NCBI GenBank assembly: GCA_028714495.1
Contig: JAQTMH010000001.1
Location: 179,814 to 243,813 of the forward strand
DNA length: 64,000 nucleotides
Source of the DNA: Patescibacteria group bacterium
Lineage (GTDB): Bacteria > Patescibacteriota > Patescibacteriia > JAHIZJ01
Direction of reading: 5' to 3'
Position numbers and translations under genes: made by a program
In this document: in pieces, positions 14,246 through 51,785 of the stretch
Layout of the letters: every line of letters begins with the position of its first letter
Position numbering within the stretch: the first letter of the stretch is position 1
Notes under the pieces: model-generated
Seen by the model: only the letters and a program-made list of their open reading frames with translations
Told to the model about the DNA's origin: nothing
Database searches by the model: none

Positions 14246-14738
14246 GGTACTAGATAAACTCATTTGATCCTAAACAATAAATTTTATTACCTAATCTTAG
14301 CCAAAATACCCTGTTGATAACTTATTGGCTCTAGGCATTGACAATTTGTCCGACATCTTCTATGCTTGGGGGCTTAGAAGACAAAACAAAATCTTTACAA
14401 TATAATATTAATAGTATCCGTGAGGCGATGAACTGCAGCCTGAATCTGGTCGCTTTCCCCCTAGAGTTTATTAAACTTTTGGGGGCGGGCTGCGGGGAGC
14501 TAGTAGCGAAACCGACATGGCGGAGGAAGTCCTTCGATACCAAAAACTGCCGCCGCCTCACGCCCAAGAGGCGTTTTTTGTTGGCCTGACCTTATTACCG
14601 GTTGCCTTTAGTGAAATACCTAAAGACAGCCGGTTTGTAAGGTTACTAAGCTCTTTGACAACACGGTGTAAGCGGAACAAAACGCCGAAATACAGCGCGA
14701 AGTTGTTTTCGGGGTTACCACAAAAAGGAGGACCGGTC

Positions 14739-25265: not shown

Positions 25266-26770
<1,505 letters not shown>

Positions 26771-27570: not shown

Positions 27571-27846
27571 CCCGCCCGACTGCCATGTAATATTTCTGTC
27601 AAACTATTGGTTGGGACGGCGAGCCTCGGATTATAATCCGAGGGAAATTGCTGTCTTCCCGCACCGAGTCGGGGTGCGCGGACTTGAACCGCGGACCTCT
27701 CGCTCCCAAAGCGAGCGTTCTAGCCAACTGAACTACACCCCGACTCGAGGCAGGACGTGCTTCTGCACTACGCCCCGACCAATCGCTGGACTGAACAATT
27801 GTAATTATCAAAGTATAGAGCAACGTAAGCAGCCAGGGCGGGCGGG
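27571..27846 (-). other. 276-nt intervening sequence in tRNA-Pro carrying tRNA-Pro copy B; termini cccgcccg...cgggcggg
   Basis: begins cccgcccgccctggctgc and ends ggcagtcgggcggg in tRNA orientation; no ORF; no recognisable group I P/Q/R/S elements by eye. Confidence 0.5.
27669..27742 (-). tRNA. tRNA-Pro(TGG), intact, no encoded CCA, nested in the insertion
   Basis: cggggtg ta gttc agttggcta gaac g ctcgc tttggga gcgag aggtc cgcgg ttcaagt ccgcg caccccg a. Confidence 0.8.
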
Positions 27847-28046
27847 CAAAGCGAGCGTTCTAGCCAACTGAACTAATCCCCGATGAAAAAATCCCATGTT
27901 TGGGAAAAGCTTTTCTTGTTTTTATATTTTAAGCCTGTTTTTATTACCCGCTGGTGCCGAGGGCCGGAATCCCGCACCACGCAGGGTGCGGGACAAGTCG
28001 AACCAGCATAATTATGAAATGGGCCTCTTTAGTAATTCCGCCCAAA

Positions 28047-28119: not shown

Positions 28120-28182
28120 AGGCATTTGGGCGGAATTGATTTCACAGTAGGATTATATTAGCATATTTCAGTCCGGAGTTCA

Positions 28183-28225
28183 CCCCGTGCTTGTCACGGG
28201 GCTCTACCGACTGAGCTACCTCGGC
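28183..28225 (-). pseudogene. tRNA 5'-half-like fragment fused to GC hairpin
   Basis: gccgagg ta gctc agtcggta gagc followed by perfect hairpin ccccgtg-acaag-cacgggg; no T-arm or acceptor 3' strand found. Confidence 0.35.
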
Positions 28226-28258
28226 AAGTGCCCACGGCACCAGCGGGAAATCAATATT

Positions 28259-28299
28259 TGGTGGGCGATCCAGGAGTCGAACCTGGGACCTCGTCATTA
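28259..28299 (-). pseudogene. tRNA 3'-half fragment (Ile-like), CCA encoded, no matching 5' half
   Basis: taatgacgag gtc ccagg ttcgact cctgg atcgccc a cca; closely resembles the 3' half of tRNA-Ile(GAT) at 28396-28472 but with a different acceptor. Confidence 0.45.
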
Positions 28300-28334
28300 C
28301 CCGCCCGACTGCTCCGCACTCGGAGGCGGGCGGG
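28300..28334. repeat. 35-nt palindromic element sharing termini with the tRNA-Pro intervening sequence
   Basis: cccgcccgactgctccgcactcggaggcgggcggg; termini cccgcccg/cgggcggg; same cccgcccgactgc start as the 276-nt insertion; abuts the tRNA 3' half in its anticodon-loop position. Confidence 0.5.
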
Positions 28335-28395
28335 TGACCCCGCACAACTCGCCAGAGCTCGTTTGCGGGGCAGGCGCGCTGAACTCACAGGCGGA

Positions 28396-37275: not shown

Positions 37276-37509
37276 CTAAGTTCCAAACATGCCTCTTAGT
37301 GAACTGAAGTCAGCAAACATAATCACACCTGCTAGAATTATCATTACTATTCCGATGAGTTGGATGAAAAAACGCGATCCGCCAAAAGTCGCGAATACTC
37401 CTCTTTCCGCTACACCGATCCGGCCATAAAAGCTTTGGATCCATTGTGGCTTAAGAGTAAAAACAAAACCGCCAGCCAAAATTAGAAATCCGATTAAAAA
37501 CTTCGTCAT
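37276..37509 (-). CDS. small membrane protein, hypothetical
   Basis: 77-aa ORF with two TM helices. Confidence 0.3.
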   Translation of the reverse strand: MTKFLIGFLILAGGFVFTLKPQWIQSFYGRIGVAERGVFATFGGSRFFIQLIGIVMIILAGVIMFADFSSLRGMFGT

Positions 37510-37529
37510 AAAAATTAAAGCTTATTTAA

Positions 37530-37604
37530 TGGTGGGCGCGGTAGGACTCGAACCTACGACTCTCTGCGTGTAGAGCAGATACTCTGCCACTGAGTTACGC
37601 GCCC
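37530..37604 (-). tRNA. tRNA-Val(TAC) with C at position 33 (tentative)
   Basis: gggcgcg ta actc agtggca gagt a tctgc tctacac gcaga gagtc gtagg ttcgagt cctac cgcgccc a cca. Confidence 0.65.
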
Positions 37605-37888
37605 AAAATAGCAGATGTTTAAAAAATATTCTAAAGAGGGGGGTCCCCATTGCAGTCTAAGGAGCGAAGCGACTGTTTGCGCTGGGGCAAGGGGCATGCG
37701 CCCTAAAGGCGGGGTGGAAACAGCTTGTCTGCTTACATGCGGGGGATGCCTTTGTTCTATGTCGGGGCCTCCATCGCGGTCTAAGGAACGAGAAGTGACT
37801 GAACGCGATGGGGAGAGGGGGCGCCTTGCTAAGGGTGAAGCGAACCGGACACCTCCGGTGCGCGTAACCCGCAGCAAGTGCGAACCCG

Positions 37889-37974
37889 TGGTGCCCAGGG
37901 CGGGACTTGAACCCGCACCCTCTTGCGAGGCTAGGCCCTCAACCTAGTGTGTATACCAATTCCACCACCTGGGC
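37889..37974 (-). tRNA. tRNA-Leu(GAG), long variable arm, CCA encoded
   Basis: gcccagg tg gtgg aattggtat acac a ctagg ttgaggg cctag cctcgcaagagggt gcggg ttcaagt cccgc cctgggc a cca. Confidence 0.8.
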
Positions 37975-38240
37975 AGGTAGATTACCTCTTTACATTATTT
38001 AAAATAACAAATATTAGTATTATACCAACCCAGAACCACGAGGGGGTTCTGGGCCCCGCACCTAACATGGTGCGGGGTTCCACCACCTGGGCAGGTAGAT
38101 TAGCCCTTTACCTTATTTGAAATAACAATATCTGCAACATACCGATTTAAACCACGAAGGTTCTTGTTACCTATCATTAATATTACGAGATTCCGACAAG
38201 CCCTGAACCCAACGTGGTTCAGGGCACCACCTGGGCAATA
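37975..38240. repeat. two degenerate repeat units upstream of tRNA-Leu, each a GC hairpin plus copy of the tRNA-Leu 5' end
   Basis: ccaccacctgggca(g/a) recurs at about 37962, 38081 and 38226; hairpins ccagaacc-acgaggg-ggttctgg, ccccgcacc-taacatg-gtgcgggg, ccctgaaccc-aacg-tggttcaggg. Confidence 0.5.
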
Positions 38241-38245
38241 AATCT

Positions 38246-38611
38246 CTAGGTCTTGCTTTTGGCTTTTAGGGTTTTTGATGCTTCTTTGACCGGACGGGCA
38301 TATGTATTGCGAAGATAATATAACTTTGCCCGGCGCACCTGGCCCTGTTTCACGATATCAATTTTGGCGATTCGCGGAGAATGAATAGGAAATATTCTTT
38401 CTACCCCCACACCCTCGGAAATCTTTCGGACTGTAATCGTAGCGTTAAGGCCTTGGCCGCCGTGCCGCGAAATTATCACCCCTTCAAAAATCTGAATGCG
38501 TTCTTTCTCTCCCTCGGTCACTTTTTGATGCACCCGGATGGTTTGTCCAGGTTTCAAATCAGGCAAATCGGTTTTTAGCTTCGACTTTTCGTTTTCCTTA
38601 AGAAGATCCAT
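38246..38611 (-). CDS. rplS: 50S ribosomal protein L19
   Basis: [83 protein letters not shown]. Confidence 0.85.
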
Positions 38612-41807: not shown

Positions 41808-42071
41808 GCACTAGGAAGATGGGGGATCAATGTGGCGCTCTAACCAACCTTGCCCCCGTGAAAACGGGGGTGAGCTAGACGCCCACCTGAACAAACAAAA
41901 TAAATTTAACGACATACATAATCACTTCTTACCTCATAGTGAGCATGCCCCGGATTATCCCCGATTAAATCGGGGACGGGGGACCCCCTGCCTTATAGCG
42001 ACGCTTCTGATATTATGGAAAGGTGTTGTAGCGTCGATATATCGATGACCTACCTATTTATTCACATTCTC

Positions 42072-51439: not shown

Positions 51440-51630
51440 CCTTCGGGATGGGCCATCTTTTCGACCGAAGATTGGCAATATTTAATAGGGTATCCTGACT
51501 TATGGAGGAATTGCTCGTTGCGCCTTCCCACCCAGCCCATCACGATAGGCTGGACAGTGGCTTTTCACAACTTGCTTCTCCACTTACAGTGGCGGGACCG
51601 CGCTGGATTTTCACCAGCTTCCCCTTATAT
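51440..51630 (-). promoter_or_regulatory. cobalamin riboswitch
   Basis: minus-strand reading ggaagctggtgaaaatccagcgcggtcccgccactgtaagtggagaagc...aagtcaggataccc; diagnostic gguGAAAAUCC / CGGUCCCGCCACUGU core and B12-box-like AAGTCAGGA. Confidence 0.75.
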
Positions 51631-51785
51631 GTCTAATTGTTAATAAACTGCGACTTGACCTGTTGTTTTTTAATTCTAGTCTAAGCGTATTATGATGTCA
51701 AATTAGAATTCAAAATTCTAAATGTTAAATCATTGTTTCCGCCTCTCGACCCTGCTCTAGGCGGCTTCCTTCATTTTTAATTCTC

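Follow-up and report, generated by a model that had tools for sequence, protein, structure and literature searches.

The window, i.e. the whole 64-kb stretch of DNA analyzed here, contains a spacer of 284 nt (37605-37888) between the genes for tRNA-Val(TAC) and tRNA-Leu(GAG), both of which are encoded on the - strand. An earlier note on this DNA had described two hairpins between these tRNA genes, and both were found on the + strand at the positions given there. The extent of 37640-37830 that it assigned to the region covers the hairpins, but the structured element reaches 37888, and its last part, the rod B', lies mostly beyond that end coordinate. The following features were identified:

37530-37604, - strand: tRNA-Val(TAC), identified by ARAGORN and Rfam; it points away from the element and forms the 5' boundary of the spacer
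37627-37633, both strands: putative divergent promoters with overlapping -10-like hexamers, read from the sequence
37645-37687, + strand: first copy of module A (U1); covariance model R1, 69.9 bits, E 1.4e-16
37688-37763, + strand: middle stretch between both hairpins (M); no recognisable module, weak fold (z -1.97)
37769-37813, + strand: second copy of module A (U2); covariance model R1, 69.5 bits; fold z -3.3
37817-37887, + strand: rod B', a long irregular hairpin; fold -45.7 kcal/mol, z -6.3
37889-37974, - strand: tRNA-Leu(GAG) with encoded CCA, identified by ARAGORN and the Rfam tRNA model (55.7 bits); its CCA end abuts B'

The G+C content of the spacer region is 0.57-0.67 compared to about 0.45 around it, and the + strand is rich in G. 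Folding of the spacer yielded -123.7 kcal/mol (z -4.5) for the + strand and -93.4 kcal/mol (z -3.2) for the - strand. Two mechanical open reading frames, of 110 aa (+) and 107 aa (-), run across the spacer. Protein coding was rejected, as both are broken by stops and frameshifts in the relatives L025 and L028. Thus, composition and broken reading frames bear out the earlier description of a G+C-rich region with no credible ORF. Nine neighbouring genes were scanned, among them those for ribosomal protein L19, a pseudouridine synthase and a CCA-adding enzyme as well as ORFs without a Pfam match. Upstream of U1, the -10-like hexamer TATTCT (37627-37632, + strand) faces the element and overlaps with TAGAAT (37633-37628, - strand), which faces tRNA-Val. 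The hexamer TATTCT is retained in L025 despite a diverged hairpin just 3' of it. A strict sigma-70 scan of the spacer revealed no full promoter and no strong consensus promoter on the + strand, and the divergent promoters are hence only putative.

The first hairpin, U1, consists of a 5' arm CCCCATTGCA (37645-37654), GTC (37655-37657), a loop (37658-37670), GAC (37671-37673), TGTT and a 3' arm TGCGCTGGGG (37678-37687). Nine of its ten outer pairs are formed, in line with the imperfect stem described before. U2 is built in the same way from the arm CTCCATCGCG (37769-37778), GTC, a loop (37782-37796), GAC, TGAA and the arm CGCGATGGGG (37804-37813), and here all ten outer pairs are formed, one of them as U.G. 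The perfect 7-bp stem that had been assigned to the second unit is the core of this ten-pair outer stem. Both hairpins show the characteristics of module A, namely a stem of about 10 bp with a CCCC...GGGG base, an inner GUC/GAC helix and a 3' UGAA bulge. Their common apical sequence, GTCTAAGGA.CGA..AG.GACTG, occurs twice in the window compared to 0 expected occurrences. The loop motif claimed previously is real in this respect, since the pattern GTCTAAGGANCGAN{2,8}GACTG also has two occurrences in 64 kb and none in 100 dinucleotide shuffles. The loop of U1, GTCTAAGGAGCGAAGCGACTG, is identical to the family consensus and sits on the imperfect stem. The apex of U2 differs from the consensus GUCUAAGGAGCGAAGCGACUG by three substitutions and a 2-nt insertion, while the mini-helix is kept; in this variant an A-U pair replaces G-C in the apical mini-helix, and the loop has 5 nt.

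U1 and U2 are paralogous copies (37640-37667 versus 37764-37791, 82% identity over 28 nt, period 124 nt), and the differences between their stems are compensatory. The stems had been reported as different, which holds for their sequences but not in the sense of unrelated stems. Only the second copy is conserved among relatives, and the hairpin belongs as one module to a larger element linked to tRNAs; neither could be seen in the earlier note. Evaluated piece by piece, the fold z-score is -0.03 for U1, which is no better than shuffled sequence, -3.3 for U2, -2.0 for M and -6.3 for B'. A scan of the whole window with R1 found U1 and U2 as sole matches; no copy lies near the other ten of the 12 tRNAs. 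No rod was found after U1, where M is not matched by R2, the covariance model of module B, even with filters off. The idea that M represents a second B rod was dropped for this reason, and an alignment of the two sequences of U1 plus M was uninformative.

For identification of further copies, 185,579 species genomes were scanned for the loop pattern, which revealed eight loci. Seven of these lack a surrounding hairpin and were taken as chance matches. The remaining one (L006) lies on a complete chromosome of Ca. Peribacteria, where the loop sits on another stem with complete complementarity, and tRNA-Ser(UGA) follows on the same strand after 22 nt. One of the seven chance matches, from an Acidobacteriaceae MAG (L003, 3102-3122), is an identical 21-mer, GTCTAAGGAGCGAAGCGACTG, which lies in front of a relA/spoT-like ORF and has no hairpin around it. 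A scan of a metagenome collection yielded 11 loci, all of which (11/11) have the hairpin with the same loop on compensating stems. These metagenome loci could be placed no finer than CPR, the closest named homolog belonging to Paceibacterota with 49% identity. In viral contigs, no copy of the loop motif was detected.

Twelve copies of module A, from the window, one Peribacteria genome and 10 metagenome loci, were aligned. In this alignment, 96.8% of the stem cells are paired and changes on both sides (CG/UA/GC) occur in 5 of 13 pairs. The covariation score is 0.35 compared to 0.12 in shuffles, and none of 500 shuffles reached 0.35. Sliding the partners by 1-3 columns as a control reduced pairing to 30-50%. 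Copies within one sample have common stems, so that the effective number of independent lineages is about 6 rather than 12. The 21-nt apex is invariant or nearly so in most copies. It reads AAGGA-GC-GAA-GC-GAC, which corresponds to a small helix with two tandem G.A pairs. The apical two-pair helix (GC-GAA-GC with GA/GA flanks) is supported at one pair, which occurs as G-C, as G.U (L006) and as A-U (U2). On inspection of the apex sequence, no 3-nt bulge as the hallmark of a K-turn was seen beside the tandem G.A pairs. Five G.U cells in the alignment favour the modelled strand, which is therefore taken as the RNA strand and corresponds to the + strand in the window. Judged by sequence, module A is a new and well supported structured RNA family. 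The proposal that the loop of a structured RNA is under selection while the stems vary is thus supported by covariation in 12 copies; for its refutation the earlier note had named a lack of expression together with a lack of further copies or covarying homologs, and 12 loci were found.

In 10 of 12 independent loci a promoter-like site is present 5' of module A, and a same-strand tRNA gene likewise follows it in 10 of 12. These tRNAs are Ser UGA (2x), Ser GCU, Ser GGA, Arg CCU (2x), Glu UUC (2x), Pro GGG and Lys UUU. Most loci contain a second module between hairpin A and the tRNA, termed module B, which is a rod with purine loops. Its layout is outer helix-GGA-ACCY-GNA-GCA-hairpin-UGC-GNA-RGGU-GRA-outer helix, flanked by AAGGAGCG and AAGCGACGN, and compensatory changes were found in 9 of 20 pairs among six sequences. 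The covariance model R2, built for module B from six canonical leaders, puts the 3' end of B 0-2 nt from position +1 of the tRNA in L011, L012, L013, L014, L017, L019 and L020. The B flanks and the A apex consist of the same words, and in alignments with R2 the apex of A falls on the base of the B model, the rod being treated as a deletion. This indicates that two related motifs are joined in tandem in the unit. In L013, L014 and L016, module A is preceded at a distance of 20-60 nt by sigma-70-like promoters (TTGACA-16-TATACT and similar). Since the gap between B and the tRNA is at most 10 nt, there is no room for a separate tRNA promoter, and the spacing suggests that modules A and B are part of the tRNA primary transcript. 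Further short leader modules were noticed in L012 (1196-1240), L013 (626-684), L016 (2600-2720), L017 (765-850) and L006 (1815-1850). They include a shorter hairpin variant A' (GGUCUAGCGAAGCGAACC) and repeated CCGAGCGC...GCGAGGGCGAA units. The word GAAGCGA(A)C is recurrent throughout these leaders.

In the window, the rod is not followed by a tRNA on the same strand. Instead, its 3' end (37887-37889) directly meets the CCA end of tRNA-Leu(GAG), which is encoded on the opposite strand. B' is composed of an outer helix, a 3x3 loop UAA/GCA, a helix GGGU/ACCC, a 3x3 loop GAA/GUA, a helix GCG/CGC and an apical hairpin. R2 did not match B' with default filters. With filters off, a weak end-to-end match to 37813-37889 was obtained (20.3 bits, E 4e-5 in 741 nt). 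B' has the same helix and loop lengths as R2, with the central helix strand-swapped, i.e. GGGU/ACCC instead of ACCC/GGGU. The head-on junction of 0-2 nt with an antisense tRNA-Leu(GAG) is present in the window, in L025, in L028/L029 and in L015. The last of these is an unrelated locus with other flanking genes and a different tRNA-Leu(GAG) sequence. On the opposite strand of its B-like region, a hairpin followed by six U lies directly after tRNA-Leu. This resembles a terminator of tRNA-Leu, and the head-on arrangement could therefore have a simpler cause. The + strand of the tRNA-Leu(GAG) gene itself folds into a cloverleaf-like shape ('mirror tRNA') with an 8-bp acceptor-like stem and three arms.

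Conservation was analyzed among relatives of the window lineage, namely L025, whose ribosomal protein L19 is 93% identical to that of the window, and L028/L029 with 71% L19 identity and the same gene order. Identity to L025 amounts to 64% for U1, 69% for M, 92% for U2, 98.6% for the linker plus B' and 100% for tRNA-Leu, compared to 88% for the coding DNA from rluD to rplS. In U1 of L025, invariant loop bases are mutated. In comparison to L028, the structure of B' is kept through 8-9 compensatory pairs, including GGGU/ACCC to GGAU/AUCC. L028 has an A-like hairpin at the position of U2, in which the loop is diverged and the invariant sequence is lost, and it has no counterpart of U1 and M. U2 and B' exceed the identity of the coding DNA in L025 and B' shows compensatory pairs in L028, which argues that both are under constraint in this clade. 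U1 and M appear to be recent, replaced or decaying. The constraint is only partial, since U1 is decayed in L025, the loop is diverged in L028 and the element is absent from L022, L023, L027 and L030. In L027 and L030, neither a match to module A nor a recognisable B'-like rod was found beside tRNA-Leu. Five tRNAs of L022 and six of L028 were searched for module A in their vicinity, and no other copies were present. As far as these genomes tell, the window clade does not use module A as a general tRNA leader, yet keeps a copy at tRNA-Leu.

In L022 (6469-8040) and L023, which have the same gene order, 1.5 kb replaces the RNA element in the spacer between tRNA-Leu and tRNA-Val. This stretch carries two ORFs without a Pfam match and an 88-aa GIY-YIG ORF as called in L023. 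The spacer between tRNA-Leu and tRNA-Val is a variable site and possibly an insertion hotspot.

Partial tRNA sequences were observed at several positions of the window. Between rplS and tRNA-Leu(GAG) (37975-38245), three copies of the 13-15 nt from the tRNA 5' end (TGCCCAGGTGGTG, - strand) are present. In two of them, the repeated sequence extends by about 38 nt into the promoter-like upstream flank (51 nt per copy, 92% identity), and each partial tRNA copy is followed by G+C hairpins. L025, L028 and L022 do not have these copies; there, the tRNA starts 10-17 nt after rplS. Pieces similar to tRNA 5' halves are found on the - strand at about 27750-27900, 28130-28260 and 41810-41900, upstream of intact tRNA-Pro, tRNA-Phe and tRNA-Val(GAC). 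One of them resembles tRNA-Ile(GAU), with a hairpin of 20 nt as an insertion in its D loop. L018 has a 5' fragment of tRNA-Pro immediately 3' of module B (262-370), and the intact gene is found after a further 105 nt. These observations suggest that the 5' ends of tRNA genes have repeatedly been duplicated or replaced in part. ARAGORN also reported a 96-nt 'tRNA-???' with a 4-nt anticodon (28259-28354, - strand), the 3' half of which resembles the adjacent tRNA-Ile(GAU), while its 5' part bears no resemblance to a tRNA. A complete 16S rRNA gene is located at 25266-26770 (+ strand). It is not followed by a 23S rRNA gene within the window and the next gene is tRNA-Pro on the opposite strand, which indicates unlinked rRNA genes. 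A cobalamin riboswitch (51468-51659, - strand) was identified with 88.5 bits, and a c-di-GMP-II-GAG riboswitch match (14412-14526, + strand) lies just above the gathering score (45.2 compared to 40).

Several known types of element were considered for the spacer. A search against Rfam 15 (4227 families), which had been proposed before, was carried out at the gathering threshold on the whole window; no family matches the hairpins or the rod in 37605-37888. Lowering the threshold to E <= 10 on 37500-38300 and on modules A and B of five other loci revealed nothing beyond tRNAs and chance matches. B' has words in common with the specificity domain of class A RNase P RNA (RF00010), where UAAGGGUGAA and GUAACCC.GCAGCAAG resemble the consensus GuAAGGGUGAAA and AAaCCCCacccGgaGCAAgg. 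However, the pairing partners differ: on E. coli rnpB, the GUGAAA of RF00010 joins helices and CacccGgaG has its partners in the 5' strands of other helices, whereas B' contains a helix GGGU/ACCC, for which L028 has the covarying GGAU/AUCC. Mimicry of the specificity domain was therefore rejected, and RF00010 gave no match at E <= 10. An intrinsic terminator was rejected as well, since none was found by scanning 37605-37888 on either strand and the hairpins precede A/G-rich sequence with no U run. A small ORF after the SD-like AAGGAG of the loop was discarded, as no suitably spaced start codon is present in the leader sequences examined, and pairing of the loop with the 16S 3' end gave only the generic 6-nt SD match to CACCUCCUUUCUA. 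Compared to REP- or MITE-like repeats, the motif has only two copies in 64 kb, always lies beside a tRNA and has covarying arms; within the 64 kb scanned, a REP-like repeat is unsupported. No relevant description of a CPR tRNA-leader motif was found in the literature, the coverage of which was incomplete, so that an earlier description is possible.

At the level of sequence, we regard as established the RNA family, its secondary structure and strand, its fixed position against tRNA genes and the fact that U2 and B' are selectively conserved. Relevant to function are the invariance of the apex among lineages with drifting stems and the promoter-proximal position of the unit. A full unit would consist of a promoter, a GGGG start, hairpin A, rod B with 3x3 purine loops and, after 0-2 nt, the acceptor end of a tRNA. 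The RNA of the window would be transcribed from the + strand, diverging from tRNA-Val, fold as A-M-A-B' and then run into the reverse complement of tRNA-Leu(GAG). We suppose that it is most likely a discrete and stable product. Its 3' end may be set by RNase P cleavage at the adjacent tRNA-shaped fold, which would be a true tRNA in most loci and the mirror tRNA here. The invariant apex with tandem G.A pairs could be bound by a factor acting in trans, for which a protein is the most plausible candidate. Transcription, release by RNase P and binding of a factor are all inferred steps. A copy kept at tRNA-Leu only and a tRNA junction in either orientation fit poorly to a purely cis-acting leader and better to a discrete RNA. 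Together with the precedents of mirror tRNAs and 3'ETS-leuZ, this favours a tRNA-anchored structured RNA, transcribed from the + strand, with an apex that binds a factor in trans and a 3' end made by RNase P. We hold this reading tentatively, at somewhat less than even confidence. Modules A and B might further represent a new class of tRNA-anchored small RNAs in CPR, for which the tRNA shape in either orientation is only a handle for RNase P and the hairpin nucleates a dedicated RNP. Such a class would explain the single head-on copy at tRNA-Leu(GAG) without leader use, but we consider it speculative and rather unlikely.

The unit could also be a purely cis-acting pre-tRNA leader, the window copy being a slowly decaying relic of a rearrangement. 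Such a leader might determine the order of processing, protect the 5' end or control the access of RNase P, since leader positions -3 to -9 are paired within the base of B. This would agree with the 10 of 12 independent loci in which the unit is immediately followed by a tRNA on its own strand, and with the base helix of B, which occludes the leader to within 2 nt of the cleavage site. The degenerate U1 of L025, the diverged A-like loop of L028 and the missing element in L022, L027 and L030 are likewise consistent with decay. However, a relic is hard to reconcile with the conservation of U2 and B' above that of neighbouring coding DNA and with a B' structure kept via 8-9 compensatory changes at 71% L19 identity. 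The head-on junction with tRNA-Leu(GAG) is also found in the unrelated L015, and a distance of 0-2 nt in four loci is unexpected of a relic. All in all, this explanation seems somewhat unlikely, although it deserves to be taken seriously.

Distinctly less probable is a selfish or duplicative cassette at the DNA level, in which a promoter-leader segment is spread to sites next to tRNA genes by recombination or gene conversion, the hairpins representing its conserved termini. Near-identical stems within one sample (L011/L020, L014/L018 and L017/L019) would agree with such spreading, and so would the partial tRNA 5' fragments beside the cassette in L018 and beside tRNAs in the window, the variable spacer between tRNA-Leu and tRNA-Val with the GIY-YIG ORF in L022 and the U1 and M that look replaced relative to L025. 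G.U pairs and purine loops on one strand point to selection at the RNA level instead, an invariant loop with covarying stems is the opposite of a copied DNA repeat, and no transposase, integrase or target-site duplication was seen around the element. It is also conceivable that the - strand is functional, as a structured spacer or 3' trailer of co-transcribed tRNA-Leu and tRNA-Val with hairpins for processing or termination. Both flanking tRNAs are located on this strand, it also folds well (z -3.2), and in L015 the complement of the B-like region carries the hairpin with six U directly after tRNA-Leu. Against this, the + strand folds better by 30 kcal/mol, the G.U pairs would turn into A.C mismatches, the sense of module A is defined by the downstream tRNA in eleven other loci, and no U run follows any - strand hairpin in the window spacer, which makes a - strand function very improbable. 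The fact that U1 alone folds no better than shuffles would suit mere chance inverted repeats in a G+C-rich spacer. The motif never occurs in shuffles and twelve further copies show covariation, and this last explanation can be considered refuted.

Bacterial tRNA 5' leaders are generally held to be short and disposable. The tRNA-anchored RNA described here contrasts with this, as it resembles a leader, has a 21-nt invariant apex and covarying stems and is common to different tRNA genes and distant CPR lineages. It points to an undescribed step or factor of RNA processing, or to a new small RNA, in a large uncultured group with reduced genomes. Conserved non-coding sequence is rare in reduced genomes, and such sequence is therefore informative.

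Among known systems, TIGR arrays occur in CPR bacteria and phages and consist of units of about 36 nt with 8-12 nt repeats and 9-nt spacers, 5-15 repeats being located beside a Nop-domain Tas gene (PMC12045711). They are similar to the element in their tandem structured RNA units, their conserved and variable parts and the group of organisms. A TIGR array was nevertheless rejected, since two units with a period of 124 nt and a 21-nt invariant loop are present here and no Nop gene was found among the nine neighbours. Like orphan structured RNA motifs in Rfam, module A is an invariant-loop hairpin with covarying stems in a fixed genomic context; unlike them, modules A, B and B' match none of the 4227 families. 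In E. coli, 3'ETS-leuZ is a functional RNA which is cut from the spacer of a tRNA precursor (PMID 25891076, as cited in PMC10710024). The element described here is comparable in that it is a non-tRNA segment of a tRNA transcript that could be released by processing nucleases and act alone. It differs from 3'ETS-leuZ by its position on the 5' side, its highly structured and modular nature and its occurrence at many tRNA genes in distant lineages. In addition, the window element faces the tRNA head-on and has no known base-pairing target, and its release and function are only predicted.

Mirror tRNAs function as processing signals for RNase P and RNase Z in mitochondrial transcripts (PMC5435911). 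There, as in the window, a tRNA-like fold at the end of another RNA is formed by the antisense strand of a tRNA gene, in our case directly after B'. The known cases are found in organelles, while cleavage in the window is a prediction. To our knowledge, no bacterial case of mirror-tRNA processing is known, and the head-on arrangement at tRNA-Leu(GAG) would be the first bacterial hint of a mirror tRNA as processing signal.
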